This document shows positions 16,439-60,307 of a stretch of 64,000 nucleotides of DNA, piece by piece (position 1 is the stretch's first letter; the number at the start of each line of letters is the position of its first letter). Source of the stretch: an uncultured Methanoregulaceae archaeon (GTDB taxonomy: Archaea > Halobacteriota > Methanomicrobia > Methanomicrobiales > Methanospirillaceae). A program made the position numbers and the translations under genes. The DNA lies in the NCBI GenBank assembly GCA_963841015.1, contig CAWJAX010000003.1:544001-608000 (forward strand). Reading direction: 5' to 3'. Below the pieces are notes generated by a model. It searched no databases, was not told the DNA's origin, and worked only from the letters and a program-made list of their open reading frames with translations.

Positions 16439-16461
16439 CGGGTACAGGTGAAGAAGAACCC

Positions 16462-20445: not shown

Positions 20446-20446
20446 C

Positions 20447-21622: not shown

Positions 21623-21742
21623 TTTTTTTGCCCACTGAAAACTCAGGATGAGTAATTTATATGTGCAAAAAGATGGATGAACGAAGTTGTTAATTAACCG
21701 GTTTAAATGAATTGGATTCTAAATAAGGAGATGAATGAAACG

Positions 21743-22198
21743 ATGAATGCAGATGAAGCAAAGAAGATCATAACAACTGCTATCGACAGGGAAGTCGAGG
21801 CGTATACATTTTACCGTACCGTATCCGAAAAGGCAAAAGACCCGTCATTAAAGAAACTTTTTACTGAACTTGCCGGAGAGGAGAAACAGCACCGGGAATT
21901 CCTGCAGGGGATGCTCACCAAGGATGTAGCAAAGATGCACTTTGAGGCAAAAAAGGACTACAAGGTTGTCAACGCACTCCCGAGCCCCCCACTCTCTGCC
22001 GATATGAAACCACTTGACGGAATTGTTGTTTCAATCAAAAAGGAACTTGAAGCCATGCAGATGTACACCCAGCTTGCAAACCTTTCAACTGACACAGAGC
22101 AGAAGTTTCTCTTCAGCCAGCTTGCAAACATGGAAAGTGGGCACAAAGCCCGGCTTGAGGATATCTATACCAATATGGCTTTCCCCGAAGTCTGGTAA
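21743..22198 (+). CDS. Rubrerythrin/ferritin-like di-iron protein
   Basis: AI.RE.EA..FY...LA.EE..H and KE.EA...Y..LA..E..H. Confidence 0.85.
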   Translation: MNADEAKKIITTAIDREVEAYTFYRTVSEKAKDPSLKKLFTELAGEEKQHREFLQGMLTKDVAKMHFEAKKDYKVVNALPSPPLSADMKPLDGIVVSIKKELEAMQMYTQLANLSTDTEQKFLFSQLANMESGHKARLEDIYTNMAFPEVW

Positions 22199-30486: not shown

Positions 30487-30488
30487 GG

Positions 30489-42554: not shown

Positions 42555-43097
42555 ATGTATGTCCCGACCAGGATCTTTTTCACCAAGGGGGTTGGTGTGC
42601 ATAAAGACCGTCTTGCATCCTTTGAACTTGCATTGAGAAAAGCCGGGGTTGAAAGGTGCAACCTTGTATACGTTTCGAGCATCTTCCCTCCAAAATGTAA
42701 ACAAATATCAAAATCAGAAGGATTGAAATGTCTCCAGTCGGGGGGTATTACTTTTTGTGTCATGGCAAGAAATGAGACCAATGAACCGAACCGCCTGGTT
42801 TCAGCCGCAATTGGCCTTGCCCTACCCAGTGATTCCGAGGAATACGGGTACTTATCTGAGCACCACGCTTTTGGTGAAACACAGGAAAAGACCGGCGAAT
42901 ATGCCGAAGATCTTGCAGCTACCATGCTTGCAACAACCCTTGGTATTGAATTTGATGTAAATGCTGCATGGTCAGAGCGGGAGCAGACCTATAAAGCGAG
43001 CGGTAAGATTATCAAAACCCAGAATGTGTGTCAGTCTGCTGAGGGGGACAAGAACGGTCTCTGGACAACAACGATCGCCGTAGCAGTCTTTTTATAA
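42555..43097 (+). CDS. pdaD: Pyruvoyl-dependent arginine decarboxylase
   Basis: FFTKG.G...SFELALR.AG....NLV.VSSI.PP (Ser-Ser self-cleavage site), GYLSEHH. Confidence 0.92.
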
Positions 43098-43190: not shown

Positions 43191-43964
43191 TTATTCTGAT
43201 TTTTCTTGTCTTTCGTGCGCACGTTTTTGGATTATCTTAGCAAGATTCAGCACAGCAACACGGGCAGGACTGTCAAACGGGATCTGTGAAACCGGTGTGG
43301 CCGCAAGATCCGCGGTTTCGACGTGGGGATCATCAGGAATTATGGCTATAGGTTTTTCATTGCCAATATCAACCGGTGCAGTACCTGATTTGAAACGGTT
43401 GAAAACAATCTGAATTCGTTCCGGTTCAAGCCCAAGCTGCGTTGCGATATCCTTAATGCGGGCAATTGTACGCAATCCCCGTGCACCAGGATCACTCACA
43501 ATGAGCAGCATATCCGGTTTTCCGATCGTTCCCCTGCTGATATGCTCCATGCCAGCCTCTGTATCAATGATGATAAAACGGTAATCGCGCTCAAGCTGAA
43601 TCATACATTCTGAGAGCAGGTCATTGGCAAAACAATAACAACCGCTCCCCTCCGGTCGGCCCATTGCTACAAGATCAAAACCCTTCGCTTCGACAAGAGC
43701 CTGCCGAAACCGGAACCTGACATAGTCGTGGCGATTCATGCCCGGGGGAATATGACGGGTGAATGCTTCCTCCCGCATGCTCCCCAGGGTTTCGTGGACA
43801 GTAACACCCAGCGCTTCATGCAGGTTGGCATTCGGGTCCGCATCGACTGCAAGAACAGGAGTTTCTGCCAGATCAATAAGCGAATGGATCAGCAGTGAAC
43901 TGATTGTGGTCTTGCCGGTTCCTCCTTTTCCTGACAAGGCGATGGTAAAGGGATGTTTTAGCAT
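43191..43964 (-). CDS. acsF: CooC/AcsF-type nickel-insertion ATPase
   Basis: SGKGGTGKTT, DADPN.NL, MGRPEG.GCYC, DTEAGMEH.SR; last gene of the ACS operon. Confidence 0.88.
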   Translation of the reverse strand: MLKHPFTIALSGKGGTGKTTISSLLIHSLIDLAETPVLAVDADPNANLHEALGVTVHETLGSMREEAFTRHIPPGMNRHDYVRFRFRQALVEAKGFDLVAMGRPEGSGCYCFANDLLSECMIQLERDYRFIIIDTEAGMEHISRGTIGKPDMLLIVSDPGARGLRTIARIKDIATQLGLEPERIQIVFNRFKSGTAPVDIGNEKPIAIIPDDPHVETADLAATPVSQIPFDSPARVAVLNLAKIIQKRAHERQEKSE

Positions 43965-43993
43965 ACTATGTCCTGTTTGGTTCTGACGCAGGG

Positions 43994-45035
43994 TTATGCT
44001 CCGGTTTCTTTATCCCGTATTCGTCGGGATATCTCAGCTGCGGTTTTCATGATGGCAAGGGAACCATTCCGGTCAGCAAAACGTATCCCGCAGCTGGGTG
44101 TGATGAGAGACTGTGCGTCAAAAAGGTGTTCCGGCATGCATGAGCATAGACGGGTCCTGATAGCAAGATACTTCTGATAGAGGGTTTCGAGGTTCTCGGC
44201 AGCAAAGATTTTGTATTCTGCCGGGACAATCCCCCATGCCACAACCCCACCCTGCTCCATATCAGCTTACAATGGAATCAGCGTACAGCAAAAATTCCTT
44301 TGCTGTTGCGTAAGCATCGACAGATACAACTGAAGGATTGAGCCCCAGCACAAATTCCCAGTCCGTATTCGAGCAGCAGTGTATCCCAAGCCCACCTTCA
44401 ACCAGTGCAGCAATGTCTTCCCAGCCTGCTCGTACGGTTTCTTTATCGACTGGCACCACTGAAGATCCCAGTGATGCAAGATATGGCTCATTCAAAACAA
44501 CGAGTGTTTCTGTAACGCCGGTTCTTTTTCTCATCTCACTCTCACACCATCGTGCCTTGAGTGCAATCATTTTCGACAGCACATCAGCAAGCTGCGTATC
44601 ATAGTAAATCGGGCGTTTGTTGGCATCGACAACCTGCATGCCAAAGGTGACCGGCCCGGTGACCTGGCATTTCAGCACCTTCGCATGAGACAGGGAATGA
44701 GACATCATTTCGATAAAACCGGATGCATATTCCTTATGCAGTCCGTAGGGGATGTAATTGCCCTCAACATAATCCATGTATACCTGTTCCATCGCCTCTG
44801 TCTGATCCGTTGTACTGTCAAAAAGAAGCCGGTCATCCCTGATGATCCTTCCTGGCAACTGCTCGGAATCATTAAAGACAATACTTTCCAGCTGACCCCG
44901 ATCCGGAAGGGTAGGCACATACGGAAACTCGGCAAAGATCTCCAGAACATCACTGCATGCTGCCGCCGGATCCGTATGGGGAAGCGCACCTACGCCGGTT
45001 GCCAGAGAGTGGGGAGATGGGATCATCTTTGCCAT
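43994..45035 (-). CDS. Core (folate-independent) methionine-synthase-like Zn methyltransferase, MesB-like, frameshifted at ~44262
   Basis: TGVGALPHTD, K.QVTGP.T, NEP, GIHCC.NTDW, S.DAY, AWGIVP, ITPSCG. Removing one base joins ...SIVS to (Y)MEQGG.... Confidence 0.8.
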
Positions 45036-45039
45036 AAAT

Positions 45040-46941
45040 TTACTTCCTCCTGAGCCGACAGGATTCGAGGAGTTTCTGGACCCTGGGGAACATGGTGAGA
45101 TCCGTGTGAGGTAAAAATGTACTTGAAGTGTACTCATCCATAAATGATGCCTCCGCATTCAGTTCGATGTACGCAATTTTACCGGCGATCTCATCGAGGG
45201 TTTTTCTCTCTCTCCGGTTAATAAGCGCAAGATTTGCGCCCGTAACTGCCCCGTTGCCGATATTTTTAATCCGATCTGCGTCTATCTCCGGGATCAGGCC
45301 AATAATTGTCGCATTTTTCTTGTCCAGATAATTGCCAAATGCACCGGCTACATAGATAGTAGCGATTTCGTGTCGGGTCACCCCCGCCTGTTTCATCAGC
45401 GTTACACAGGCAGCATGAATCGAAGCCTTGCTCATGATCAGGTTTTTGATATCATTTTCAGTGATTACGATATCTTTTCCGATATCGGTCTCACTGGCCC
45501 AGACTACAACATACTCCGGGAAATGAGGACCTGTGCGGATTCTTTTGTTTTCCAAGCTGGAATTTATCCTTCCGGTCCGGTCAATGACGCACGCTGAAAA
45601 AAGTTCTGCAACCAGGTCGATTAATCCGGATCCGGTAATGCCCCGTGGTTTGATGTTGTTTATTGTGCTGAAATGAGGATCGAGGGTCACGGGGTTGACC
45701 TCAATCTTCTCTATTGCACCGGGATTTGCCCGCATACCAAAGAGCACTTCACCTCCTTCAAGTGCCGGTCCGGCAGCACCGGCACAGGAAAACATCCATT
45801 CTTTGTTACCGAGCACAATCTCGAAGTTGGTGCCGATATCGATTAAAAGCGAGACCTCTTCGCGTTCATGCATACCGCAGGAAAGGATGTCAGCGATAAT
45901 GTCCCCCCCGATAAAATCGCTGACAGCAGGAAAGGCAAAGAGCCCGCTATTCTGATTAATGGCAATGCCAATCCTTGCTGCCGCTACAGACAGAGCCCGC
46001 TGAACTACCGGAACATAGGGCTCCGCGATAATATACGCTGGATCTATCCCGAGAAGCATATGCGTCATTACCGTATTACCAGCAACCACCACTTCATAAA
46101 TATCCTCACGGTCGATACCCGCGGTATTTGCAGCAGAGGTAAGTGCTGCATTGATGCTCTCTACAGCGAGGGCCTGGAGTTTTGTAAGCCCGTTTTTCCG
46201 GGCAAAATTCACGCGTGCGAGGATATCTTCTCCACAGCTGATCTGCCGGTTATAGTTCGAGGCAACAGCAACTACCTTGCCATCCACCAGATCCCAAAGA
46301 TAAACAACTACCGTCGTAGACCCGAGATCTATCGCAGCACCATAAATATGTTTTGAGGTATCATTCTCCTGGAGATCAATAAGGCGGTAGCCGCCCGGGA
46401 CGAGGGCAATTGTCCCGGTAACTTTCCAGTCACTATGACGAAGGAGTGTCGGGATTTCACGCATTACTTCAAGAGGTACATAAATTTTCTCTGCAACAGG
46501 CCCGCCACTTTTCTGGATACCCCATAAAAGCCGGGTGAGATCCGGTGATGGATCGGTGAGTGTTGGTGGCTGGAGCTCGACATAATATTTTCTGACAGAT
46601 GGATGAATCTCTATGCCGGTATCCCGGCCTGCGATCAGAATTTTTTGTTCCTGGATCAGGGTACTCTCGGGAACCAGAACCTGCAAATCGCCTTGCACTA
46701 TAGTTGTACAAGCAAGACATGCCCCTTTTTTCAGTTCATCCTCGTTAAAAAACTGCGAATATTTCTGCCGGTCAAATTCCGTTTTTCCTGATTGTACATA
46801 GACAACACACTTGCCACATTTTCCCTGTCCGCCGCAGACAACATTTATGTTCAGTCCTGCTCTCTGGGCAGCATCAAGAATAGTGCTGCCACGTGCTACG
46901 TCAATTTTGCGATAACTCGGAAGAAAGGTTACCGTGCGCAT
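45040..46941 (-). CDS. acsV: ATP-dependent reductive activator of corrinoid proteins (RACo/AcsV; 2Fe-2S plus ASKHA)
   Basis: CGGQGKCGKC...LAC, DLGSTT, N.Q...GEDI..R, GNTVM.H, DIGTN.E, AGPALEG, AGAFG. Confidence 0.92.
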   Translation of the reverse strand: MRTVTFLPSYRKIDVARGSTILDAAQRAGLNINVVCGGQGKCGKCVVYVQSGKTEFDRQKYSQFFNEDELKKGACLACTTIVQGDLQVLVPESTLIQEQKILIAGRDTGIEIHPSVRKYYVELQPPTLTDPSPDLTRLLWGIQKSGGPVAEKIYVPLEVMREIPTLLRHSDWKVTGTIALVPGGYRLIDLQENDTSKHIYGAAIDLGSTTVVVYLWDLVDGKVVAVASNYNRQISCGEDILARVNFARKNGLTKLQALAVESINAALTSAANTAGIDREDIYEVVVAGNTVMTHMLLGIDPAYIIAEPYVPVVQRALSVAAARIGIAINQNSGLFAFPAVSDFIGGDIIADILSCGMHEREEVSLLIDIGTNFEIVLGNKEWMFSCAGAAGPALEGGEVLFGMRANPGAIEKIEVNPVTLDPHFSTINNIKPRGITGSGLIDLVAELFSACVIDRTGRINSSLENKRIRTGPHFPEYVVVWASETDIGKDIVITENDIKNLIMSKASIHAACVTLMKQAGVTRHEIATIYVAGAFGNYLDKKNATIIGLIPEIDADRIKNIGNGAVTGANLALINRRERKTLDEIAGKIAYIELNAEASFMDEYTSSTFLPHTDLTMFPRVQKLLESCRLRRK

Positions 46942-47061
46942 GATGATCTGACCTTAACATTACCATTGGTAAGAGAGATAAGAAATATGCTACGGTGATT
47001 ACCCTGCCGTTTTTTAAAAATATAATGCAAATACCCGACAGAAATTTTTTACCCTGGGTTT

Positions 47062-48405
47062 TCAGGATTCAGGCTTCTTCCACTCCTCATGCAGATATTC
47101 TCCGATTTCTGCTGCATCGCGGGGTCCGACCATCACCTTCCAGCCGGTTGCTTCTTCAATCCTGCCTGACAGCGGTGCGGAATAGCCCGGGATAATCAGC
47201 GTTTTGTGAGACACTTCCTGCTCGACACTAAATTTCCTGATCGAATCACGCACCAGCGTTTCATTCAGTTTTCCTGCAGCTACCGCAGTCAGCACTGAGA
47301 GACCTTCTGTGTCGACAATCAGCATAAAACAGGGAATGCGGGTGGACTCCAGGTAACCCTGGAGAGTAAAAAATGTCAGAGAGAAATTCACCGTCAGGAG
47401 AACCGGGGCATCTTTTCCCGGGGTTCCTACACGGTACAGTCCGGGATTCATCTGGATCGGTTTCTGGGGATCCGTGTAAATGTTCTGGCGAAGCGTCAGG
47501 GCGGCTTTGGCGGATGCAGGGGAAAGCGGCTGTGTAATAATTACCGATGCATATTTAACGATGCCCAGTGCGATTTCAGCATCCTGAAGAGGAGGCTGTG
47601 TGGCATCCATAAACACGGGATACCCAAGATCCGGTACTGTACGCGTGATTGCCAGCTGCCGGACAGAGGTTGATGTAATAACAAAATCACCAAGGGATTG
47701 CGGGCAAAGATCCATGACCAGTTTCTTTACCCCTTCACCAACACAGTTTTTTACAAGACAGGTAAGGTTCTCCAGTCCATGAGCCTTAATGACAAGAGGA
47801 CAACTGTGTTTTTTGGCGAGAGCACATATTTCCCTGAAATTTTCATTCGTGGCTGCGTGAAGCAGGGGTTGATAGCTGCCGACCTGAATAAGAGCCTCAT
47901 TAAACGCTTCGATATTCCTTGATATCAGCACGAGAGGGAGATCTGCTGATTCCTCGACTATGGCAACAGCTCGTGCGAATACATCCGGTGAACCGCTGGT
48001 ATTTTCAATTGCAATACCATTAAACCGCAGATCGGTGCCAATACGGGTGAATGATTCGTCCCTGACCCTGACTGTTACCGAAGTGATCTCTTCAGGTGAC
48101 CAGGTATCTGATACCCTGAAGAGGATCCCCGGAGGATGATAGAAGGTCTTGTCATGGCGGTAAAGCACAAATTCCTCACCAACAGCAAACGACCGTTCTC
48201 CCACACCAACGTTAACCAGCTGTATGGGGGGCCGCGTGGTTGCACCCAGCACAGACTTTGCCTGTTCGTCAAGATACGGGCAGAGATCCACATCCGCTTT
48301 TCCGCTGGCGAGCTTCATCGCAAACGTAAGGCAGGTGGGATCGCCACATTCCTTGCAGTTCTTTTTCGGCAGAAGTTTGTAGACATCAAGTGCTTTGAGC
48401 GCCAT
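47062..48405 (-). CDS. acsC: Corrinoid iron-sulfur protein large (gamma) subunit
   Basis: LPK.NC.ECG.PTC..FA...CP, RQNIYTDPQKP, T.NFSLT, GLSVLTA.AAGK, IIPG, VGPR.A. Confidence 0.95.
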   Translation of the reverse strand: MALKALDVYKLLPKKNCKECGDPTCLTFAMKLASGKADVDLCPYLDEQAKSVLGATTRPPIQLVNVGVGERSFAVGEEFVLYRHDKTFYHPPGILFRVSDTWSPEEITSVTVRVRDESFTRIGTDLRFNGIAIENTSGSPDVFARAVAIVEESADLPLVLISRNIEAFNEALIQVGSYQPLLHAATNENFREICALAKKHSCPLVIKAHGLENLTCLVKNCVGEGVKKLVMDLCPQSLGDFVITSTSVRQLAITRTVPDLGYPVFMDATQPPLQDAEIALGIVKYASVIITQPLSPASAKAALTLRQNIYTDPQKPIQMNPGLYRVGTPGKDAPVLLTVNFSLTFFTLQGYLESTRIPCFMLIVDTEGLSVLTAVAAGKLNETLVRDSIRKFSVEQEVSHKTLIIPGYSAPLSGRIEEATGWKVMVGPRDAAEIGEYLHEEWKKPES

Positions 48406-48407
48406 TG

Positions 48408-49364
48408 CTATTTCACCTCTGAAAAAGCCGCAACGCTTCTCATGTCAGTAAACGCTTTTTTTAGCAAACCGACCGTTTTTGGATGACGGACACAGATAAT
48501 CTCGGCACCGGCAACGGCAGCGGCAATCCCCGTATAAAATTCCCACTGGATGGCCATCTCATCCTGCAGGGCAGGCTCAGATTCCCTTACTTCTTTTATC
48601 GTAAGTGAATCGATAGCAGAACAGATTACCGGCATGGCAAGATCGGTGTCCCCTTTCAGTGCAGAAAACCTGATCCGCTCCATGGCTGAATAGGAATATT
48701 CAAACCCATAACCGAGTGCACCGGTATAGGGATCGATCATAATATGATCGTGTTGCACCCCAATCTCCCTCAGCAGGATATTGAGTTGCTTTGCGAGGTT
48801 GACATCAATGGGAGACTGGGCAATTAGTGAGTGGTTATAGGCAAGAGCTGCTGCTGCAATACTCCGGTACCTTCCTGCCTCGGCGGTTCCCAGGAGAAGT
48901 CTTTCTCCCTGGCCGGTCTCACCACACTTCAGAAAAACCTCGCTGTCGATTTTAGGTTCATTGCTCCCTTCAATGATGAGCGGGAGACCGGTCGCTGAAA
49001 GCACGGCTTCCACGGTTTTTCCGACAGTGGAAACATCAGCAAAATTCCGCTGTCGTGTACTGGTCAGGTAAAGGCGAACCAGATCCGCCTTGTAAACCGT
49101 TTCAGCAGCCTTCGCCCAGTCATGCACATTATTTACCAGATCGCCACAGTAATTTCTGATGATCGGCGACCAGTATTCCGGGTTATCGCAGATTTCTAAT
49201 GCTACAAGTGGTGATGTAGATGCTGGGTTTCCATCAAGGAACGGGAGGGTTGTTCCCCCACCTATGCGGTAAGAAATGGATCTTGTTCCCCCTTCTGCTC
49301 TGGTGGCTCCAAGAATTACCTGACCGATAGCGCCATTCCAACCAAAATTAAGATCATATCCCAT
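48408..49364 (-). CDS. acsD: Corrinoid iron-sulfur protein small (delta) subunit
   Basis: GG...LPF, SPIDVNLAKQLN, DP.TGALGYGFEYSYS.MERIR..AL.GD, RHP. Confidence 0.93.
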   Translation of the reverse strand: MGYDLNFGWNGAIGQVILGATRAEGGTRSISYRIGGGTTLPFLDGNPASTSPLVALEICDNPEYWSPIIRNYCGDLVNNVHDWAKAAETVYKADLVRLYLTSTRQRNFADVSTVGKTVEAVLSATGLPLIIEGSNEPKIDSEVFLKCGETGQGERLLLGTAEAGRYRSIAAAALAYNHSLIAQSPIDVNLAKQLNILLREIGVQHDHIMIDPYTGALGYGFEYSYSAMERIRFSALKGDTDLAMPVICSAIDSLTIKEVRESEPALQDEMAIQWEFYTGIAAAVAGAEIICVRHPKTVGLLKKAFTDMRSVAAFSEVK

Positions 49365-49373
49365 ACTATCTCC

Positions 49374-51404
49374 TCACACGAGCGGTTTCATCTGGAGTGC
49401 CGGATGTTTTACCCGTTCAAGGTAGGAGATCAGGTCTTCAATAGAGGTCGCATTTGTCTCATCCGCGATCTTGTCAAAGAGATCCGGTTTATTCTTGATC
49501 CATAAGTTTTTTTACCAGCTGGTTTTTCAGCTCCTCTTTAGCTGGAAAGGCATCCAGACAAGGCGTTCGATGCCTCCGTCTCCCTGCAGGAACCGGTCGG
49601 AGAGAATATAGTTTTTTGAGATGCCGGCAAATCCCGGTGTCTGAGCCCCACCGCCAATAGTTCCGGCAAGCGTTGAGAACGTCATCCCCGAGGGGGTGAT
49701 ACCCTTAAATTCCCGGTTGACTATCATGATCCCGTTCACTTCGGGAAGCATCAGGGCGATACATTCAAAACAGCCACAGCACGTCATCGGGTATTCCATC
49801 ACACTATACAAAGAGCAGCGGTCAATCTCGCCGTGACTTGCCTTTTTAACAAATTTGTTGACTCCTTCAAATTCCCCGTTCTGGGTGTTTATGACCGCTC
49901 CCTTTTCGATCGGCTGATTGGCACCGGAGGGTGCTATCTCATAGGCAATTTTTCCATCCAGCCAGCTTATCGCCCCGCAGAGAGCGGGGTGTTCAGGAGT
50001 GATAACGCAGACATGGTTGGGGGCAAAGGTCTGGCAGAGCGTGCAGGAATAATAGGTGTTCACCTCTGCATCCCGCATTCCTTTGATGCGTGCATCCCGC
50101 TCTGCATATACCCTCTCTGCATCTTTTTTTGCTGCCAGCACCTTTGCTTCATCGGTAATAAGCGTAACAGATACTGCATCAAGAAGCTTGGGGAAATCCA
50201 TGCGGAACTTGCTTGCCAGCAGCTTACCGATATGCTCAATTTTTACCCCTTTTGCGACGACCTCTCTGGAGATTCTCACCCAGATGATATCCCGCTGGGC
50301 AACATGCCAGGATCCTTCCCCATAATTTACAAAATTATGGATCCGCCGCTCAAGAACCGGTTCGTAATCTTTTTTCATCGTCTTCCCGGCTACATCGATG
50401 ACTATTGCAAGCGGGTAGGCACCACCCTCCTTCATCATGTCAATCTCAGGACCGATAACGGTCACCTGACCGTCGGTTATCTCGTCTGCGGAACGCATGC
50501 GCAAAAGTTCAAAGGCAGGAGACCGTCCCCCGCCAAATTCGACATACATCTCCTCTTTCCGGATGCTCTTTCCCTCAAATGCAGGTGAGCACCCCATAGG
50601 GATGGGGATGGCAGTCACATTCACCTTTATTCCTTTTTGCTCCATCCCCTGACGCACAACCTCTTCAGGAGTTGCGGGTATCCAGTCGCCTCCCTGATAA
50701 TCCCCGAGTGACAGGATGGGAAAACCAAGGACTCTCATCCCATCAACCAATGCAATTTCCTGGTCAGAAAGCCCGGGAAATGCAATCACAATCGCTTTTG
50801 CCCGTTCCTTGGCGTACGCGAGAAGACGGGATAAATCACCCGGAGTAACACCCCCAAACATCATTGCAACCCGTGCAATGACATCGACAAAATGAATCCC
50901 GTATGCCGGTGTCGAACCAAGCGGGATAAGACGATATTCGAGTCCGAGCTTCACTCCGGCATGGGAAAGGGATTTGACAATATCGCCTGCAAGGAACGTA
51001 AGCATGTATTTTTCCTGCAGTTCCCGGCAAACAGCAGAAACGCTGTCTGCACCCGGGGGGGTGCCAACAACAAGGGCAAGCCCGAGGATACTGCCATCAA
51101 CAAGGGAGTACCCAAGTTTCCGGATTATGGTGTCATCGATAAAACCGGTATAAGGAGCAGGTTCCCTGCCTTCAGCTGCTGTTTTCTCCGCAAGAATGCA
51201 TTCCGATGCAACGAGGGGATTACCATCAGTCTTTCCAAACACGGCAAGTGCTGCTTTCTGGTCATGAACAGCTATTCCGGTAAGCGCAAACGAGATGGGC
51301 AGGTGATAGGCGGTTTCGTCATAAGAAAGTGAGTGTCTGATTGTGGTGAGCATCGTTTTAAGGTGAGTTTCACCGTTTTTTTTCGCTATTCCCAAATCTG
51401 TCAT
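49374..51404 (-). CDS. acsB: Acetyl-CoA synthase, bacterial (AcsB) type, about 676 aa; two compensating indels near 49500-49540
   Basis: A-cluster ligands YSCTLCQTFAPNHVC...LCGA...PMTCCGCFE; N-terminal TAYHLP/TGF..D domain; manually read C-terminus DKIADET.AT..EDL..YL....HPALQMKPLV* ends at 49374. Confidence 0.93.
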
Positions 51405-51815
51405 AGAATTATTCCTTCTGATTATGGGTTGCCCGGTAGTATTGATATAGTTTCGTCAAAGGGTAAGCCAGTATTTTTTTCCTCCCAGACGACAATTCAC
51501 CAGCAATTTGGTGATAACAATAGGTATCATCTCTATGCTAGCCTGTTTAACAAGAGAGTTGATAGTGAATATTTTACACAAAAATATCTATTTTTCCTCT
51601 TATCATGGTCCTGGTATTGGTAGCTGTCATTCAACCGGTGCTCGTATTATCTACTGAACGCAGGAGACAATAAAAAAAATAAGTGCGTTTTTTCGTTTTT
51701 CAGGTAATTTCTCCGTTCATGTTTGAAAAAAAGAGATATCCTGAATAATTATGATTTCTACCGTAATGTATATCGGAACTCCCATCCAAAGTTAAGGCAC
51801 ATCCGGTGGACATCT

Positions 51816-53327
51816 TTGAAGAAATTCTCCTTTATCGCCCATATGCCAGATACTCCGGGATCCCTTCACCGGGCTGCTGAGATCATCAAAAAATATGAAG
51901 GTAATATTAATCGTATACAGTATGATCGGCGCATTGACCCCGCAACCGTGTTTTATGAAGTTACAGCTTCACAAGAAGCGTTCAGGGAAATTACCCGGGA
52001 TCTTGCACTGATCGGGTATCTTCAGACGTCATTAAAACCTCAGGACTTTTTAAAGTTCTGTGTTTATCTTCCGCACCAGCCCGGTGCTCTTTATGAATTC
52101 CTGAATATTACAACATCGGTGGGAGCAAACATAGCGTTTATTGATTTTGATGATAAGGGAAGACACCCCGATCGTCTCACCGTAAGCCTGAACCTTGAGC
52201 AGAGTTCGGTTGTCGACCACATTTTAAACAAGCTGAAATCATGCTACCGTCTCGAAATCCTTGAATATGACACAACCGGAAAACACCTGGATGATACGGT
52301 TTTTTATGTCAGGTATGCCCAGGCAATACGCGAACTTATCGGGGAGTCAGAAGAAAATTTTTTACTTTCATTCCTTGCTGATACAAATCACATCGTACAG
52401 GAGCTGATGGCACAGGGGAATGATCCACGGAAAGTTTTTGAGAGTGTTCTTATAACCGGCAAGACGATGTGGGCGACAACCCGGGACAGGTTCTATGCAG
52501 ATGTCCAGAAATTTCAGATTACTGAACAATGCACCCTTTTTTGTTTCCAGGTCCCCTGTGGAGGGAATATTTTTTTGATTGCTACAGCCGAAGAAAAAAT
52601 CCTGATCGATACCGGTTACGGCATATATCACCATGACGTTCTGTCAATGCTTTCGCGGTATGGTCTTGGAGATGAACGGCAGGTATCGCGGATCATTGTC
52701 ACTCACGCAGATGCGGATCATTGCGGAGCTGCAGGGTATTTCACAGCACCGATTTTCATGCATGAAGATACTCTTGCAATCATAAAAAAGAACAACCGTG
52801 CATTTGGCTCCCGGAGCGAACATTCTATCCTTGAAGAGTTTTATACCAAGATGATCAACCTTTTCTCAAAGTTCAATACCCCGGCCAACGTAGTATGCTT
52901 CTCCCAGCAACCGGTAACGATGCGGGGAATTTTTCCGGTAATTGGTCTGGTAAGAATCGGAGATCTTGAACTGGAAGTCCTGGAAGGTCTTGGAGGCCAT
53001 ACCTGTGGACAGATCTATCTTTATTCCCGAAAAAATGGGCTGCTGTTCGCTGCAGACAGTCTGATCAACTTTTCGAGTCTCACAAAAGAGCGTGCTGAGT
53101 ACAGCTCACTTGCTGCTTTTCTTGTAACCTCGGTAAACGTGGACAGCGAACTGGCAAAAAAAGAGCGAAGAGCACTGCTTGAAATTGCTTTTGAAACTGA
53201 TAAGGCCATGTCAGCCACGGGCAAACGATGCCTTATCTGCGGAGGTCATGGAGCTGTATCAGTTCTTGAAGAGAACAAGCTTTTTTCTTATGGAACTGTT
53301 GAGCGCTATCAGCCACATACCCCATGA
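51816..53327 (+). CDS. Tandem ACT-like domains fused to MBL-fold metallo-hydrolase
   Basis: MPDTPGSLH.AA.II....GNI and LPHQPGALY..L......GANI (ACT-like); IDTGYG, THADADHCG, GGHT.G, GGHG (MBL). TTG start inferred. Confidence 0.78.
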   Translation: MKKFSFIAHMPDTPGSLHRAAEIIKKYEGNINRIQYDRRIDPATVFYEVTASQEAFREITRDLALIGYLQTSLKPQDFLKFCVYLPHQPGALYEFLNITTSVGANIAFIDFDDKGRHPDRLTVSLNLEQSSVVDHILNKLKSCYRLEILEYDTTGKHLDDTVFYVRYAQAIRELIGESEENFLLSFLADTNHIVQELMAQGNDPRKVFESVLITGKTMWATTRDRFYADVQKFQITEQCTLFCFQVPCGGNIFLIATAEEKILIDTGYGIYHHDVLSMLSRYGLGDERQVSRIIVTHADADHCGAAGYFTAPIFMHEDTLAIIKKNNRAFGSRSEHSILEEFYTKMINLFSKFNTPANVVCFSQQPVTMRGIFPVIGLVRIGDLELEVLEGLGGHTCGQIYLYSRKNGLLFAADSLINFSSLTKERAEYSSLAAFLVTSVNVDSELAKKERRALLEIAFETDKAMSATGKRCLICGGHGAVSVLEENKLFSYGTVERYQPHTP

Positions 53328-53887: not shown

Positions 53888-55030
53888 TTATTTATGTAAT
53901 TGTTTAGTTCTTATCAAGGATTGATAATAAGCTTCAATATTCGATGTGATACCATTCCAATCATATGAAACAACTGATTCTATACAGAAGCCTTTCATTT
54001 CTGCGTGGTGCTGGAGTGCATGACTGATCTTGTCGGCAAGATCCTGGGCAGAAAGAGAACAAAGGTATCCGTTATTTTCTGTAATTAAATCACGGACCGC
54101 ATTTGCCGGATGATCTACCGTTACAACCGGGAGCCCACATGCCAGGGCTTCAAGCGCGGTAATACCAAATCCCTCCCGTGTGGAGGGAAGCACGAAAACC
54201 TGAGAAGATTTTAATTGAGCAATGAGATCATCATGATTCTGAAAAAATCCATATAAATGAATGGTGTTTTTATCCTTTTTGTCATTAATAAGGTTGTGAA
54301 TTTTTCCATATTCCGGACCTTCCCCTATAATAACTCCACGAATATCCGGTTTTTCATGCTGGAGGAGTTTAACCGCATGTATTAGCAAATCTGCATGTTT
54401 TTCTTTGATGAGCCTTCCCACAAAAATAATATCCCATGATTCAGAAGATGACGAGACCGATCTTATTCTGGAGAGATCTATTCCGTTAGGGATAATTTTG
54501 ATTTTATGACGAACTCCCAGATTATTAAGGTTTTTCGCAGTAGTTTTCGACACAGCTACATTCTCTGAAGTGAACCGGGCAACCAGTCGCTCAGTCGCTT
54601 TCCCGACAAATCCTCTCCATCCAAGATATTCGTACCAGTAATCTCCCCATACTTCATGCCATGTAATGACAAGCGGGATTTTTTTTAATGTTGCAAAAAA
54701 TTTTGCAGAAAAGCAGGAGAAATAGGGAAACTGCTGGCAATCGATTACATCAAATCTTTCCTTTAATAAGGGAGCGATGAGGTGTATGCTGAAATAGAGA
54801 GCCTGCCATATGGTCCTCCTGCCCCCGAAATATAGTTTTTGAGCTGGACAGACTCCGTGCAGGAACACCCCTTCGCGGATAAGTATCTCCTCCCCATCCC
54901 AGAATTTCATTCCGAAAAGATGAACCTCATGCCCGCGACGGGTGAGCCGTGTTGCAAGTTCCCAAACGCGTTTTTCCACGCCACCTTTTACGTAAGGGTA
55001 GATAACATCGTAGACAAAGGCAATTTTCAT
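53888..55030 (-). CDS. Glycosyltransferase family 4
   Basis: GGVEKR, IPNGID, GRL.KEK, PSTREGFGITALEALACG. Confidence 0.92.
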   Translation of the reverse strand: MKIAFVYDVIYPYVKGGVEKRVWELATRLTRRGHEVHLFGMKFWDGEEILIREGVFLHGVCPAQKLYFGGRRTIWQALYFSIHLIAPLLKERFDVIDCQQFPYFSCFSAKFFATLKKIPLVITWHEVWGDYWYEYLGWRGFVGKATERLVARFTSENVAVSKTTAKNLNNLGVRHKIKIIPNGIDLSRIRSVSSSSESWDIIFVGRLIKEKHADLLIHAVKLLQHEKPDIRGVIIGEGPEYGKIHNLINDKKDKNTIHLYGFFQNHDDLIAQLKSSQVFVLPSTREGFGITALEALACGLPVVTVDHPANAVRDLITENNGYLCSLSAQDLADKISHALQHHAEMKGFCIESVVSYDWNGITSNIEAYYQSLIRTKQLHK

Positions 55031-55039
55031 CCTACAAAC

Positions 55040-56197
55040 CTATTCAGGATAATTGTTCTCATTGAGGAGCATCATACTTTGGAACACAGCGAAGAGAAAT
55101 ATCTGTATTCCGCTTACGATCAATACGAGGGAAAAAATTGCAGTAGAGATTTCAGAAAGAAATCCGAAATCAGTCAAGACCCAGTGGAGGAAGATATTGA
55201 AACCGAGTAGAATTCCTGTAAAGATTGAAAAAAATCCCACAACAAGAAGTATTTCCAGACTGTGGTATTTCATGAGGAATTCGATAAAACCCTGCTTCTT
55301 CTCATATCCATGGATTACTGAATAGGTCTTCATCAGAAAGCCAGAAAGGACAACCTGAATACCGCCTATTACCAGGATTGCACCAAGAATGAAAGTGTGA
55401 AGATGGGATGATTCGATATCCCCCTTAATTGAAAAAAATGTCATGAGTAAAATCCCAACAACAAAGAATAAAAATCCCGGTACAGCAATGAAGGGGAGGG
55501 GTTTCATTAGGAGGACAAACCGGATGTGGCGCCAGCCATCGGCAAAACTGTGTAATTTGGAAGGGGTCAGCCGCGGGTAGTAGGAGATAGGCACTTCTTC
55601 TATGCGCAGCCTTTCTTTTGATGCCATGACAAGCATTTCCGAAGCGAATTCCATTCCTCCTGTAGTAAGAGGCAGCCGGTCAAGTGCTTCACGGGTTATC
55701 GAGCGAAACCCGCTGTGAGTATCAGAATAATGGGTATGGAAAATGAAGTTAAGCATCCACGTCAGAACCGGATTTCCAATATACCGGTGAAGCCCATCCA
55801 TCGAACCCTTATGGATTGTCCCTTTGAACCGGGAACCGATTACAAAATCGGCACCGTTCTTAAGAGGAAACAGGAGTTTTGGTATTTCAAGAAAATCATA
55901 GGTATTATCTGCATCTCCCATGACAATATAACGGCCTCGAGCATGCTTGAATCCGGTAAGGTATGCATTCCCATACCCTTTTTTTTCTGCGTTTACGACA
56001 TTTGCTCCGAGGGAATAGGCAATTTCAGCGGTTTTGTCCGTTGATGAATCAACGACAATTATCTCGCCATCGATGGCATTTTCCCGGAGCACCTTTTGAA
56101 TTTTTGTTATACACTCACCAATGGTATGCGCTTCGTTAAGAGCTGGAAGAACGACTGAAACATCAACCTTATTTCCCTTATCTGATTCAGCATCCAT
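55040..56197 (-). CDS. GT2 polyprenol/dolichol-phosphate glycosyltransferase-like protein with C-terminal TM helices
   Basis: PALNE, GYG.A...G, DAD.TY, GSRF, D..SGFR, SKL..F.DG. Confidence 0.88.
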   Translation of the reverse strand: MDAESDKGNKVDVSVVLPALNEAHTIGECITKIQKVLRENAIDGEIIVVDSSTDKTAEIAYSLGANVVNAEKKGYGNAYLTGFKHARGRYIVMGDADNTYDFLEIPKLLFPLKNGADFVIGSRFKGTIHKGSMDGLHRYIGNPVLTWMLNFIFHTHYSDTHSGFRSITREALDRLPLTTGGMEFASEMLVMASKERLRIEEVPISYYPRLTPSKLHSFADGWRHIRFVLLMKPLPFIAVPGFLFFVVGILLMTFFSIKGDIESSHLHTFILGAILVIGGIQVVLSGFLMKTYSVIHGYEKKQGFIEFLMKYHSLEILLVVGFFSIFTGILLGFNIFLHWVLTDFGFLSEISTAIFSLVLIVSGIQIFLFAVFQSMMLLNENNYPE

Positions 56198-56329
56198 TGT
56201 CTGTCCCTAAACAGTTTCGTGCGATTGTAAAAATACTCAATGTTTTGATTTCAGAAAAAGGTTGGGAAAACGTTCGGAATATAATTGTTACCATTTTTCA
56301 AAACAAGGCATGATCTCTATTAGGGTAAT

Positions 56330-56660
56330 TTGGATAACTTTGGTTTTTTGATACGCCTTAAGGGGTCTAAAGAAAAATGTGACCTCTTTGGACAATTTCT
56401 TTGCGTCCCTGGCATCTCTCGATGCCGCAACACTGCTTAATGCCTCGGGGGTATTCTTCGATATTCCACCCGAGATCTTTGAACGTTTTTCTTTCGGGTT
56501 CTGATACACCGAGGATATCTGTTGCCCAATGTTCAGCATCTCCATCCGAATGAACAACTCTGAAAACTTTGATGAAACCATATTGGCACAAGTGAACAAC
56601 TCTTCCTTCAGGAGGTATGTCAATCTCCGAGATTTGGCGATTATTCGTATGATCCGGATC
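56330..56660 (-). mobile_element. IS701-family transposase remnant
   Basis: YGFIKVFR......EHWAT...WNIEEYPRGIKQCCGIERCQGR....QRGHI fragment; no full-length ORF. Confidence 0.72.
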
Positions 56661-56886
56661 TTATTTCATTAATTTCGTTATAATGTTGGCTAAAATTTCC
56701 GCTGTGCATATCAATCTCAATTTTACACCAAATCACATTTTGAAAAGCAGATCTCTGACATGAAAATAATTATAGTCGGAAATTCATAGCATAATCATCA
56801 AGTGTATCGTATACAAAATCTTGAAAAAAGAGTTATAAGTCATCTCTTGGTGTAGAAATGGAATTTATTCATATTGGTGCAATAAC

Positions 56887-57978
56887 GTGAAAATTGCGAT
56901 ATTTCATGATTACTTCGGTGCGATTGGCGGGGGAGAAAAAGTAGTTGTGGCTATGGCAAAGATCCTCAATGCCGACATCATTACCACTGACACCGATGCT
57001 TTGAAGAAACTGGATTCATCTGTCCATGTCATCAGCCTGGGAAATACGATTACATATCCGGGACTCAAGCAGATTTCTGCTGCATTGAAATTTTATTTCT
57101 GCAATTTTTCCAGAGATTATGAGGTTTTTATTTTCAGCGGCAACTGGGCGCACTATGCTGCGCACCAGCATCATCCTAACATTTGGTACTGTCATACACC
57201 GGTTAGAGTATTTTATGATAATTATGAAAATTTTCTCAGCACGTTACCCTTTTTCAAACGATTTTTTTTCCGTTTTTATGCATATCATTTCAGGTCTTTT
57301 GAGATTAAATCCCTTCCAAACATTGATCATATCATAACAAATTCATACAATATTCAAAAGAGGATTGATCGCTATTTCCAGAGAAAATCTGAGGTTATTT
57401 ACCCCCCAATAGAGACTTCAAAATTTTATTGTTCTGAATATGGAGCATTCTGGTTATCCGTGAACCGGCTGTATCCAGAGAAACAGATTGAACTGCAGAT
57501 TGAGAGTTTCCGTGCCATGCCGGAATTGGAACTTATTGTCGTCGGGGGTTTTGCAAGGGGGGATCATTCAGCACCATATGTTAAAAAAATTCAGTCAAAT
57601 ACTCCATCAAATGTGACTTTTTTTGGAGAATTACAAGAAACTGAATTACTTTATCTGTATGCGCATTGCCGGGGACTCATCTGCACTGCATTAGACGAAG
57701 ACTTTGGAATAACACCCATTGAAGCAATGGCAAGCGGTAAGCCGGTTGTTGCAGTTGATTCCGGAGGATTCCGGGAAACTGTGACACCGCACACCGGTAT
57801 ACTCGTAAAACCGGATGTGATGAGTATAGTAACTGCAATTCGGCAAATATCAAAAAATCCTGCCCAGTATCATGACTCGTGTATAGCCCGTTCAAAGGAG
57901 TTTAATTGTGAGGCGTTTGAGAAAAAGATACGGCAATGGGTACGCGACAACATTTCTCCTTTATCAGTCTCTCTGTAA
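56887..57978 (+). CDS. Glycosyltransferase family 4
   Basis: HDY....GGGEKV, YCHTP.R, NRL.PEK, EDFGITPIEAMASGKPV. Confidence 0.92.
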   Translation: MKIAIFHDYFGAIGGGEKVVVAMAKILNADIITTDTDALKKLDSSVHVISLGNTITYPGLKQISAALKFYFCNFSRDYEVFIFSGNWAHYAAHQHHPNIWYCHTPVRVFYDNYENFLSTLPFFKRFFFRFYAYHFRSFEIKSLPNIDHIITNSYNIQKRIDRYFQRKSEVIYPPIETSKFYCSEYGAFWLSVNRLYPEKQIELQIESFRAMPELELIVVGGFARGDHSAPYVKKIQSNTPSNVTFFGELQETELLYLYAHCRGLICTALDEDFGITPIEAMASGKPVVAVDSGGFRETVTPHTGILVKPDVMSIVTAIRQISKNPAQYHDSCIARSKEFNCEAFEKKIRQWVRDNISPLSVSL

Positions 57979-58039
57979 ATGGAGCGTTGTCCGATTTTTA
58001 TTCTTATCTTTTTTTATATTCCAGATGCCAAACAATGGT

Positions 58040-58516
58040 ATGGATAGATCCATTGAGGGGGTCAGAGTAAAAAACCTGCGAGTTATCCCGGATGAGCGCG
58101 GGTGGCTCATGGAAATATTGCGGTGCGATGATAATATTTTTGAAAAATTCGGACAGGTCTATCTCACTACTGCATATCCAGGTGTGGTGAAAGCCTGGCA
58201 TTATCACAAGAAACAAACTGATAATTTCACCTGCATTCACGGGATGATGAAAGTTGCGCTTTATGATGCGAGGAAGGATTCACCAACCTATCGGGGACTG
58301 ATGGAAATTTTTGTCGGAGAAAAGAATCCGGTTCTTATCAGCGTCCCACCCGGAGTCTACCATGGATTCAAAGGGATCGGTTCGGATACTGCATATTTCC
58401 TGAGCATCCCTACACTCCCGTACGATTACAAAGAACCGGATGAATATCGTATCCCACCAAATACACCGGAAATCCCTTATGACTGGGGACTCGCACCGGG
58501 ACTTAAACATGGCTAA
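58040..58516 (+). CDS. rmlC: dTDP-4-dehydrorhamnose 3,5-epimerase family
   Basis: DERG...E, WHYH, VPPGVYHGF cupin motifs; operon context. Confidence 0.88.
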   Translation: MDRSIEGVRVKNLRVIPDERGWLMEILRCDDNIFEKFGQVYLTTAYPGVVKAWHYHKKQTDNFTCIHGMMKVALYDARKDSPTYRGLMEIFVGEKNPVLISVPPGVYHGFKGIGSDTAYFLSIPTLPYDYKEPDEYRIPPNTPEIPYDWGLAPGLKHG

Positions 58517-58540
58517 GTTCAGGGAGCGGGAGCAAAAATA

Positions 58541-59503
58541 ATGAAATTACTCATTACCGGGGGCGCGGGATTCATCGGGAGCAATTTTATTCTCTACATG
58601 ATGAACTCGCATCCAGATGTTGAGATAATCAATCTCGATGTCCTGACGTATGCAGGCAACCTTAATAATTTAAAAAGTGTTGATAAAAATCCGCGTTATA
58701 CTTTTATCAGGGGTGATATTTGCGACCAGAATATTGTCAATTCGATTCTTGACAGGTACAGAGTTGATACAATCGTCCATTTTGCTGCAGAAAGTCACGT
58801 CGATCGTTCTATTACAAAGTCTTCGGAATTTGTTCGGACAAATGTTCTTGGAACCCAAAACCTCCTGGAATGTGCACGGCATCACCTGATCGAGAAGTTC
58901 ATCCACATATCGACAGATGAAGTATATGGGAGCACCATAACGGGATCGTTTACAGAAAATAATATCCTTTCACCCTCCAGCCCCTATTCAGCAAGCAAGG
59001 CGGGATCAGACCTTCTCGCCCTTTCTTATTTTACGACATATAAACTGCCTGTCATCATCACACGGTGCACGAACAATTTCGGCCCCTGCCAGCATCCTGA
59101 GAAATTAATACCTCTCTTTGTAACCAATCTCCTTGAAGGCAGGAAAGTCCCCGTTTACGGGACAGGTAAAAATGTTCGCGACTGGATCCATGTAAGTGAT
59201 CATTGCCAGGCAGTTGAGTTCCTCCTAAAGAAGGGAAATTTCGGAGAAATTTATAATATCGGTGGCGGTAACGAGATGACGAATATCGAAATTACCGAAA
59301 AAATTTTAGCGTTCCTGAAAAAAGATGAATCATTAATTGAGTATGTAACTGATCGACCGGGACATGACTTCCGGTATTCTCTTGATTGTTCGAAGTTGAG
59401 GAATATGGGCTGGAGTCCCCGGTATTCATTTGAAGAAGGCCTGAAAGATACAGTTGAATGGTATATCAGGAACGAATGGTGGTGGAGACCATTAAAGAAA
59501 TAA
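58541..59503 (+). CDS. rmlB: dTDP-glucose 4,6-dehydratase
   Basis: TGGAGFIGSNF, AAESHVDRSI, STDEVYG, PYSASKA, DRPGHD.RY. Confidence 0.96.
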   Translation: MKLLITGGAGFIGSNFILYMMNSHPDVEIINLDVLTYAGNLNNLKSVDKNPRYTFIRGDICDQNIVNSILDRYRVDTIVHFAAESHVDRSITKSSEFVRTNVLGTQNLLECARHHLIEKFIHISTDEVYGSTITGSFTENNILSPSSPYSASKAGSDLLALSYFTTYKLPVIITRCTNNFGPCQHPEKLIPLFVTNLLEGRKVPVYGTGKNVRDWIHVSDHCQAVEFLLKKGNFGEIYNIGGGNEMTNIEITEKILAFLKKDESLIEYVTDRPGHDFRYSLDCSKLRNMGWSPRYSFEEGLKDTVEWYIRNEWWWRPLKK

Positions 59504-60306: not shown

Positions 60307-60307
60307 A

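Follow-up and report, generated by a model that had tools for sequence, protein, structure and literature searches.

We analysed a 64,000-nt stretch of DNA from an uncultured Methanoregulaceae archaeon (contig CAWJAX010000003.1 of assembly GCA_963841015.1, positions 544,001-608,000 of the forward strand; hereafter the window, to which coordinates refer unless a genome and contig are named). Six co-oriented genes on its minus strand (43191-51404) form a real and conserved operon of a published kind, in which bacterial-type forms of acetyl-CoA synthase (ACS) and of corrinoid iron–sulfur protein (CoFeSP) are joined by a MesB-like thiol methyltransferase, and which is not self-contained for carbon monoxide dehydrogenase (CODH) in this organism. 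Tentatively, at slightly less than even chances, we take the cluster to be a corrinoid methyl relay of the bacterial type, in its Methanomicrobiales version, that works in the direction of acetyl-CoA cleavage. The genes run in the order acsB-acsD-acsC-RACo-mesB-like-acsF with intergenic gaps of 162, 2, 120, 4 and 29 nt, and the cluster proteins match their families with E-values from 1e-35 to 1e-256, which excludes chance. Their order, orientation and positions had been given in a preliminary description of this DNA, and all of its gene identities were upheld.

AcsB (49527-51404, minus strand, 625 aa) is predicted to be a Ni-dependent ACS of the bacterial type, with its N-terminal domain present and the ligands of the A-cluster intact. 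It scored 847 bits against the model NF040764 (CODH_ACS_al_bet, cut-off 800) over residues 13-623 and matched Pfam CdhC and ACS_CODH_B_C; the archaeal cdhC model covered only residues 268-624. The best solved relatives were 8cjb and 1ru3 (603 bits), and the beta chain of archaeal acetyl-CoA decarbonylase/synthase (ACDS; 9c0s_E) reached 372 bits. In the alignment, the four cubane cysteine residues and the Cys-Gly-Cys Ni motif were identical to those of 8cjb_B, and we assume that these residues have the same roles as in the solved bacterial enzymes. The protein is ~45 residues shorter at the N-terminus and ~55 residues shorter at the C-terminus than the 731-residue bacterial chain.

The next two genes appear to encode a bacterial-type CoFeSP. 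AcsD (48408-49364, minus strand, 318 aa) scored 356 bits against NF003376 (cut-off 280), matched Pfam CdhD and aligned over its full length with the CoFeSP small subunit 4djd_D, its best solved relative (216 bits). It is of the short bacterial type, the archaeal cdhD model being matched only from position 72, and it did not reach the WLP_AcsD ‘exception’ model (186 compared with 430 bits). AcsC (47062-48405, minus strand, 447 aa) scored 539 bits against NF003195 (cut-off 306) and aligned over its full length with 2h9a_A (393 bits). It matched Pfam FeS and CdhD, having a 4Fe-4S domain at its N-terminus and a corrinoid-binding domain at its C-terminus, and its residues 316-444 also matched the corrinoid domain of HgcA. 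Together, the two proteins have the architecture of CoFeSP, namely a large subunit with 4Fe-4S, TIM-barrel and corrinoid domains and a small TIM-barrel subunit. The fourth gene (45040-46941, minus strand, 633 aa) encodes a RACo/AcsV-like reductive activase of corrinoid enzymes, in which Fer2, RACo_linker, Raco_middle and RACo_C_ter (an ASKHA ATPase domain) were all above the Pfam cut-offs, giving the full RACo/AcsV architecture; its 570 bits against NF040756 (AcsV) lie under the 800-bit ‘exception’ cut-off. It probably acts as the ATP-dependent Co(II)-to-Co(I) reactivase of CoFeSP. The last gene (43191-43964, minus strand, 257 aa) encodes a P-loop ATPase that matched Pfam CbiA and AAA_31 and had the CooC accessory protein 3kje_A as its best solved relative (67 bits). 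Its GKGGTGKTT P-loop and GSGCYC (Cys-x-Cys) motifs align with 3kje_A, as expected for CooC and AcsF, and it is presumed to be a Ni-insertion chaperone of this type; no NCBIfam model matched it above cut-off, and the choice of AcsF over CooC as its name is based on gene position only. The structures 1ru3/7zkj, 2h9a/4c1n, 4djd and 3kje are, we take it, those of carboxydotroph and acetogen proteins.

The fifth gene (43994-45035, minus strand, 346 aa when an extra base at 44263, discussed below, is ignored) most plausibly encodes a MesB-family zinc thiol methyltransferase with the fold of MetE, the cobalamin-independent methionine synthase, in agreement with the MesB-like call of the preliminary description. 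The gene begins with the ATG at 45035, which lies four bases past the RACo stop, and not at 45158, a point missed there. Neither Pfam nor NCBIfam matched the pieces of the gene even at E ≤ 10, and searches of PDB sequences with the protein (phmmer and profile) returned chance-level matches only, with 3rpd at E 0.93. The closest relatives are single 346-aa proteins of Methanoregula metagenome-assembled genomes, at most 98% identical (P0001, 98%) and annotated as hypothetical; more remote relatives (30-36% identical), which come from Thermodesulfobacteriota and other groups, carry the name methionine synthase II in their source records. P0001 scored 150-220 bits against the latter, a proxy for DET0516 rather than a score against DET0516 itself, the protein on which Price et al. 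(2021, PMC7857596) based their operational MesB cut-off (phmmer, at least 130, or 173, bits). An AlphaFold2 model made with 61 homologues in the alignment had a pLDDT of 96, and its best fold matches by Foldseek were C-terminal catalytic domains of MetE (E 1e-7), followed by UROD-family enzymes including an MtaA-type methyltransferase. PF01717 was touched weakly by 10 of the 61 homologues, and the ESM Atlas gave mostly clusters without names, with one PF01717-bearing cluster at rank 20 as a lead only. When the family was aligned with MesA of the same genome using hhalign (probability 97.3), the DEP motif, His-x-Cys, Asp/Glu and the last Cys fell in register.

The protein is a single MetE-type barrel without the folate-binding N-terminal half and has the size of MesB proteins (~340 aa). 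Its predicted zinc ligands are H219, C221, D240 and C315, with Asp in place of Glu665 of MetE. They are strictly or almost strictly conserved in the alignment of homologues, and this His/Cys/Asp/Cys set was kept in 81 of 82 Methanoregulaceae loci, the remaining locus being truncated. The 343-aa core-MetE of Dehalococcoides, cbdbA481, has the ligands His215, Cys217, Asp236 and Cys312 (Deobald et al. 2020, PMC7005905), and the ligand spacing of the mesB-like protein (219/221/240/315 of 346 aa) equals that of cbdbA481.

Comparison with related genomes showed that the cluster is conserved as a unit. In all 80 related loci that were fetched (some may be from the same genomes as the family sample below), every cluster gene reached keeps its order and strand, and the two mesB-like halves lie in one frame; 61 of these loci hold all seven pieces and 64 reach acsB. 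Four further families of the order, represented by one locus each, showed the same six-gene order. The preliminary description had taken a lack of conservation of the mesB-like gene beside acs genes as evidence against its proposal, and the gene proved to be conserved there in all 80 loci and in the four further families. Among 61 genomes of the family, including this one, bacterial-type AcsB was present in 48 (46 complete, two cut), and the same 48 carry the mesB-like gene; the other 13 are without both, among them G014, which has the archaeal type only. Among 101 Methanomicrobiales genomes from six families, the mesB-like gene was found in 39, belonging to five of the six families. Each of these 39, like each of the 48 in the family, also has a CdhC-domain match. 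In most carriers, the ACS match lies ~5.5-6 kb from the mesB-like gene on the same contig, and the loci that were fetched contain AcsC and AcsD themselves. Eight genomes of the order had CdhC and no mesB-like match, seven of them with short frames of archaeal length and one (85% complete) with a long frame. To judge from these genomes, the mesB-like gene occurs always with the bacterial-type ACS and never with archaeal ACDS alone, a coupling that is new here, as are the wide occurrence of the cluster in the order and, as shown next, its coexistence with a full ACDS and its persistence in genomes without Ni-CODH.

The survey also showed that many relatives contain two systems. Archaeal cdhA with a short cdhC beside it was found in 26 of the 61 family genomes, both systems in 25 and the bacterial type only in 23, and in the 25 genomes with both it is a complete archaeal cdhABCDE that coexists with the cluster. 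One locus of the same genus (L095, G005:C1:1398000-1410000) reads cooC-cooC-cdhA-cdhB-cdhC-cdhD-cdhE, followed by its own RACo, 35% identical to that of the window; such a cell would encode the corrinoid/ACS machinery twice over, complete in both cases and with a separate activase for each. CooS was above cut-off in 33 of the 61 genomes. Of these, 15 carry only the bacterial type, 12 carry both systems, and six do not have the cluster. Beyond the 15, two more genomes of the bacterial-type-only group have the gene, one being the present genome with its split cooS and the other having a copy cut by a contig end. Neither CooS nor CdhA was detected in six of the 48 carriers (78, 88, 91, 96, 98 and 98% complete); among these six, G042, G030, G046 and G016 have no Prismane-family gene and G038 has hybrid-cluster-protein (HCP)-like ones only. 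A truly CODH-free version of the cluster therefore appears to exist in some relatives, and not in this genome.

In three sister genera, cooS-cooC lies directly 3′ of acsF on the same strand. In G012 (L092, G012:C2:185000-201500, features 1694-5750 and 15874-16455) and G015 (L093), one strand carries acsB-acsD-acsC-RACo-mesB-acsF-(membrane protein)-cooS-cooC in this order, with a beta-carbonic anhydrase just upstream of acsB in G012, and in G025, G027 and G037 cooS lies within ~10 kb of the cluster by coordinates. The cluster-adjacent CooS scored 740 bits to stand-alone CODH chains, compared with 605, 459 and 450 bits to ACS-bound ones. These arrangements do not bear out the idea, put forward in the preliminary description, of a self-contained operon lacking CODH. 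G012 and G015 have a 335/368-aa gene between acsF and cooS; it was considered as a missing methyltransferase and dropped, as it has a repeat-and-membrane look by eye, no Pfam match and no counterpart in the present genome.

Within the window itself, a Pfam scan of 68 open reading frames (ORFs) covering 88% of its length gave no match to the Prismane/CODH, CdhB or pterin-binding families, in line with the earlier statement that CODH and AcsE are missing from it. The whole genome (2.28 Mb in 5 contigs, 94% complete) showed that the cluster is not self-contained, since cooS followed by cooC is encoded on contig 4 (G000:C4:38094-39930), apart from the cluster. A genome-wide search for cdhA, cdhB, AcsE and a second ACS, part of the check proposed in the preliminary description, found none of them: the window acsB is the only CdhC-domain gene, so that no second ACS is present; cdhB (PF02552) and cdhA (TIGR00314 at E ≤ 1e-30) had no match, which sets the system apart from archaeal ACDS; and AcsE was not found in the 94%-complete genome, where the only pterin-binding match is a dihydropteroate synthase (DHPS) above the DHPS cut-off. 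The preliminary description had named as counting against its proposal a CODH and AcsE elsewhere that are co-purified or co-expressed with this ACS; of this, the presence of a CODH elsewhere was borne out, and AcsE was not found. The genome further has one mtrH locus, mcrA, a canonical MesA and an AMP-forming acetyl-CoA synthetase. It differs from the Dehalococcoides type in that a Ni-CODH is encoded. AcsE is lacking, but another source of methyl groups exists, given mtrH, mcrA and MesA. All six genomes checked (this one and five relatives) have a MesA with the full set of canonical residues, and a search among the five relatives for a carrier without MesA found none. An extra MtrH paralogue as substitute for AcsE was also considered, and was dropped on account of the single mtrH locus.

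Next, we compared the residues that bind homocysteine. In MetE, these are Ser433, Glu484 and Asp599, corresponding to Ser22, Glu73 and Asp188 in 3RPD; the equivalents of Ser433 and Asp599 are described as ‘mostly conserved’ in MesB, and MesA has Gln at the Glu484/Glu73 position (Price et al. 2021, PMC7857596). We mapped these positions through 3RPD, with an offset of 3 between residue number and deposited chain, so that Glu73 is the Glu of DGE and Asp188 the Asp of DEP. The Asp599 position was checked through both 3RPD and hhalign, and the Ser433 position by the G-S-x-P motif only, as the hhalign alignment begins at residue 43. The window protein has Ala17 at the Ser433 equivalent and Asn182 at the Asp599 equivalent, and so departs from MesB at both. 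Across 82 Methanoregulaceae loci, position 17 is Ala in 70, Gly in seven and Ser in five, and position 182 is Asn in 79 and Asp in three, whereas among 56 other representatives of the protein family the equivalents are Ser in 53 and Asp in 54 respectively. In the other four families of the order, positions 17/182 read A/N, G/S, G/N and A/N. Further clade-specific positions near the motifs are T42, I52, N55 and R318. At Cys+3, the mesB-like clade and MesA both have Arg, where MetE has Lys. A quick tree united the 11 Methanomicrobiales sequences (SH-aLRT 100), with a stem length of 1.43 changes per site. Taken together, these results suggest that the clade replaced both homocysteine-binding residues and retained the zinc ligands, which is new here and makes the diverged MesB clade a modest new lead. 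Canonical Ser and Asp are retained in a few mesB-like genes, L108 (G042) and L112 (G016), and also L064, L074 and L075. G042 and G016, which keep both residues, are two of the six carriers without Ni-CODH. The cases are too few for interpretation, and the overlap may be chance or may point to two functional subtypes.

Zhuang et al. (2014), cited in turn by Deobald et al. (2020), are said to have described Dehalococcoides as having an incomplete Wood–Ljungdahl pathway. Deobald et al. (2020, PMC7005905) proposed for this bacterium a route from AcsB through CoFeSP to the core-MetE, with a flow from acetyl-CoA to CH3-CoFeSP to a thiol and CO as by-product. As presented there, Dehalococcoides mccartyi (core-MetE cbdbA481/DET0516) shares with the window a bacterial AcsB with AcsCD, the lack of AcsE, a core MetE of 343-346 aa and the ligand spacing. 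It differs in having no CODH and no other methyl route, whereas the present organism has cooS-cooC, mtrH, mcrA and MesA, and in the homocysteine-binding Ser and Asp, which are replaced in the window protein.

A methanogen mesB in one operon with acsC and acsD has already been reported (Price, Deutschbauer & Arkin 2021, PLoS Genet, PMC7857596), and the novelty of the MesB/CoFeSP pairing had therefore been overstated in the preliminary description. The window is very probably a member of the operon kind described there, which has a MesB-type core methionine synthase with both CoFeSP subunits in organisms that also have MesA, and for which CoFeSP was proposed as the methyl donor. What goes beyond its text on MesB is that the unit includes RACo and AcsF and that its AcsB is bacterial in type, together with the coexistence with ACDS, the CooS in trans or adjacent, and the loss of the Ser433 and Asp599 equivalents. 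A full-text literature search listed no paper on bacterial-type ACS in Methanoregulaceae, on its coexistence with ACDS or on the residue changes; Adam et al. 2018, which lies outside the scope of that search, may cover the first point.

The cluster can also be set against other known machinery. It has in common with bacterial ACS/CoFeSP/RACo/CooC systems the best solved relatives of its proteins (AcsB 603, AcsC 393, AcsD 216 and AcsF 67 bits) and the cofactor motifs, and differs from them in having no acsA or acsE, in the mesB-like gene inserted between RACo and acsF, and in its archaeal host. With archaeal ACDS (cdhABCDE) it shares the A-cluster and corrinoid chemistry and the CdhC domain, whereas the unit is without cdhA and cdhB, its AcsB has the N-terminal domain and its AcsD is short. 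Zinc-dependent methyl transfer from a corrinoid protein to a thiol, together with a superfamily fold (4ay7, Foldseek E 5e-5, TM-score 0.53), relates the MesB-like protein to MtaA/MtbA/MtsA of the UROD family. That match is at fold level only (10% identity), however, MetE chains match better, and no sign of coenzyme M (CoM) binding was seen.

On the reading that we favour, AcsB would interconvert acetyl-CoA and Co(I)-CoFeSP with CoA, CO and CH3-Co(III)-CoFeSP, and the MesB-like enzyme would pass the methyl group of CoFeSP to a zinc-activated thiol, which by family precedent would be homocysteine. RACo would rescue oxidized cobalt of CoFeSP, AcsF would mature the Ni site of AcsB, and no pterin methyltransferase would take part. 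A stand-alone CooS would make or remove CO in trans, the unit not being CODH-free by design. In the direction of cleavage, the AMP-forming synthetase would activate acetate, the methyl group would move through CoFeSP to a methyl-thioether, and CooS would oxidize the CO. A role distinct from carbon fixation is suggested because the mesB-like gene is strictly coupled to bacterial-type ACS and because the cluster persists both beside ACDS and without CODH. By analogy, these findings fit the Dehalococcoides model, in which acetyl-CoA cleavage would supply a corrinoid-bound methyl group to a thiol.

Several observations weigh against cleavage. A methanogen already has abundant methyl-tetrahydromethanopterin and methyl-CoM, and, with a canonical MesA in each of the six genomes checked, a second route to methionine looks redundant. 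The replacement of the Ser433 and Asp599 equivalents weakens the case for homocysteine as acceptor. The cooS-cooC pair beside the cluster in the three sister genera and the carbonic anhydrase in G012 are at least as compatible with CO2 reduction and acetyl-CoA synthesis as with cleavage. The N-terminal domain of bacterial AcsB contacts CODH, and the window AcsB retains this domain. In addition, the genome paper on a Pelomyxa symbiont interprets the Methanoregula genes as an acetyl-CoA-making CODH/ACS (PMC10579272). Weighing four of these points (MesA, the methyl pool, the altered residues and the adjacent cooS) against the three findings for a distinct role, we keep cleavage as a tentative preference, regard synthesis as rather unlikely, and regard a changed acceptor, set out below, as more unlikely again.

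If the cluster were an ordinary carbon-fixing CODH/ACS running towards synthesis, CooS or CdhAB would reduce CO2, CoFeSP would be methylated from the methanogenic C1 pool by another methyltransferase, and MesB would serve as a side tap to methionine. Besides the retained N-terminal domain and the published interpretation, the cooS-cooC pair of this genome speaks for it, as do the cooS genes directly 3′ of acsF on the same strand (G012 and G015) or within 10 kb (G025, G027 and G037) and the carbonic anhydrase gene upstream of acsB in G012. CooS is encoded in 17 of the 23 family genomes with bacterial-type ACS only, for which this would be the only route of autotrophy. Yet neither AcsE nor an extra MtrH paralogue was found, DHPS being the only pterin-binding match, and AcsD is of the short bacterial type (318 aa), to which the archaeal cdhD model matches only from position 72. 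In 25 family genomes the cluster is kept beside a complete archaeal ACDS that already does the job, six of the 48 cluster genomes are without Ni-CODH, and CooS is also present in six of the 13 genomes without the cluster. The adjacent CooS is moreover nearer to stand-alone CODHs than to ACS-bound ones, and cultured Methanoregula are reported to need acetate.

It is also conceivable, if unlikely, that the Methanomicrobiales MesB-like clade has dropped homocysteine and moves a methyl group between CoFeSP and some other thiol, such as CoM, methanethiol or sulfide. The operon would then link the methyl group of acetyl-CoA to a methyl-thiol pool, either as a substitute for AcsE that feeds ACS or as a pterin-free outlet for acetate; this reading overlaps with either direction of flux. 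Of the 82 loci, 77 have Ala or Gly at the Ser433 equivalent and 79 have Asn at that of Asp599; the same residue losses are seen in the four other families of the order, and the zinc ligands are kept in all but the truncated locus. To these may be added the long stem of the clade in the quick tree, the extra clade-specific positions near the motifs and the MesA with all canonical residues in every genome checked. Price et al. (2021, PMC7857596) moreover leave room for a different function of distant MesB homologues where the organism has other methionine synthases. On the other hand, Asn can still hydrogen-bond an amino group, and the two positions may simply be tolerant, as five loci keep Ser and three keep Asp, with G042 and G016 keeping both. 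The Ser433 mapping rests on the GS-x-P motif and not on an alignment, and the Arg at Cys+3 in common with MesA is a methionine-synthase-like trait. No sulfonate-binding residue was identified in the protein, and thioether demethylation onto Co(I) is uphill. The most attractive alternative acceptor would be CoM, which would make the operon a pterin-free bridge between the methyl group of acetyl-CoA and the methyl-CoM pool, and we consider this specific version more doubtful still. Such a bridge could replace AcsE, with the methyl group of methyl-CoM and CooS-made CO being fed to the bacterial ACS, or could be an outlet for acetate methyl groups that bypasses Mtr. It would explain why the gene is tied to bacterial ACS, why it coexists with MesA and ACDS, and why amino-acid-binding residues were lost with the zinc site kept.

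There remains the idea that the cluster is decaying in this organism, with the frameshifts in mesB-like and cooS as real pseudogenizing mutations, which we consider very improbable. As assembled, the mesB-like gene is split into two ORFs (45035-44262, 257 codons plus TGA, and 44260-43994, 88 codons) by one extra base at 44263, the sole uncompensated indel across the cluster in a comparison with four relatives; the preliminary description, right about the identity of the gene, had missed the split. The cooS gene (G000:C4:38094-39930) likewise has one extra uncompensated base relative to its relatives, so that each of the two bears such a base against every relative compared. The mesB-like frame was intact in all 78 complete relatives, four more being cut by contig ends. 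We examined Logan contigs of four public runs (three DNA libraries and one RNA library), whose populations share 0.26-0.54 of the 31-letter words of the window, and every contig crossing 44263 was without the extra base (depth lacking the base/total depth: 15.1/15.1, 14.8/14.8, 11.6/11.6 and 2.46/2.46). The exact window sequence was in none of the public runs matched, the best share of 31-letter words being 0.54, a point that leaves some room for decay. In run X1, a contig that matches 116 bases beside 44263 exactly nevertheless lacks the extra base. In the sediment metatranscriptome X15, the RNA-library run, contigs cover parts of acsF and the mesB-like gene (43390-45084), again without the base, which is not proof of transcription.

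The same assembly breaks other genes as well. The mtrH gene is split, the open frame of mcrA is 263 aa, and a TAA lies inside the acetyl-CoA synthetase match (the frame-break loci elsewhere in the genome, with that of cooS, being G000:C5:537574-538561, C5:546338-546718, C4:38094-39930 and C5:233039-234874); within the window, a Na+/H+ exchanger gene (5830-7111, minus strand) and cbiG (12338-13211, plus strand) are each split into two overlapping ORFs. We read these frame breaks as assembly indel errors because essential genes cannot all be broken, and the five remaining genes of the cluster are intact. The split of the mesB-like gene is thus most likely an assembly error and not decay. The pattern fits consensus indel errors, and any pseudogene call in this genome needs read support. 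A further ORF at 57908-58516 has mixed Pfam matches and may be another frame error.

The Methanomicrobiales, including the Methanoregula that dominate peat and lake sediment, are usually modelled as having or lacking one CODH/ACS. The present survey indicates that many carry two systems, and that the bacterial-type one goes always with a MesB-like thiol methyltransferase and can persist without CODH. It is unsafe to read these ACS genes as evidence of autotrophy because there are two systems, because of the coupling to MesB and because the cluster persists without CODH. If the cleavage reading is true, acetate carbon would have a second entry into the C1 and sulfur metabolism of acetate-dependent methanogens, with an internal source of CO. 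If, on the other hand, the MesB clade has changed its substrate, it would represent a new kind of corrinoid-to-thiol link in methanogens.

The unit is bounded as the preliminary description had it, both flanking genes being confirmed by Pfam. On one side lies the convergent pdaD outside the unit (42555-43097, plus strand; pyruvoyl-dependent arginine decarboxylase, PvlArgDC, E 4e-61), found at the same flank in 62 of the 80 loci. On the other lies a divergent gene for a protein with ACT and metallo-beta-lactamase (ODP-like) domains (51723-53327, plus strand; Pfam Lactamase_B, ODP and ACT). It occupies this flank in 46 of the 80 loci, all of the Methanoregula type (the others are limited by flank length), and is absent there in the other genera fetched. 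As a neighbour of acsB, it could be a sensor or regulator, or be unrelated. A scan for sigma-70 promoters and intrinsic terminators was at chance level (10 compared with 11.1 expected, and 8 compared with 8.7), these models not being applicable to archaea.

Elsewhere in the window, a cobamide biosynthesis cluster with four tetrapyrrole methylases, CbiG, CbiC and CbiD (11014-16172, plus strand) lies ~27 kb from the CoFeSP operon. Genes for an FdhA/FdhB formate dehydrogenase with an F420-type beta subunit and then rubrerythrin lie at 18349-22198 (plus strand), as would suit a methanogen that uses formate or H2. A MutS-MutL pair for mismatch repair, of the bacterial type, is found at 28687-33161 and two tandem PEGA-repeat proteins at 1202-4337, both on the minus strand, and a block of glycosyltransferase and dTDP-rhamnose (rml-like) genes occupies 53888-61039.

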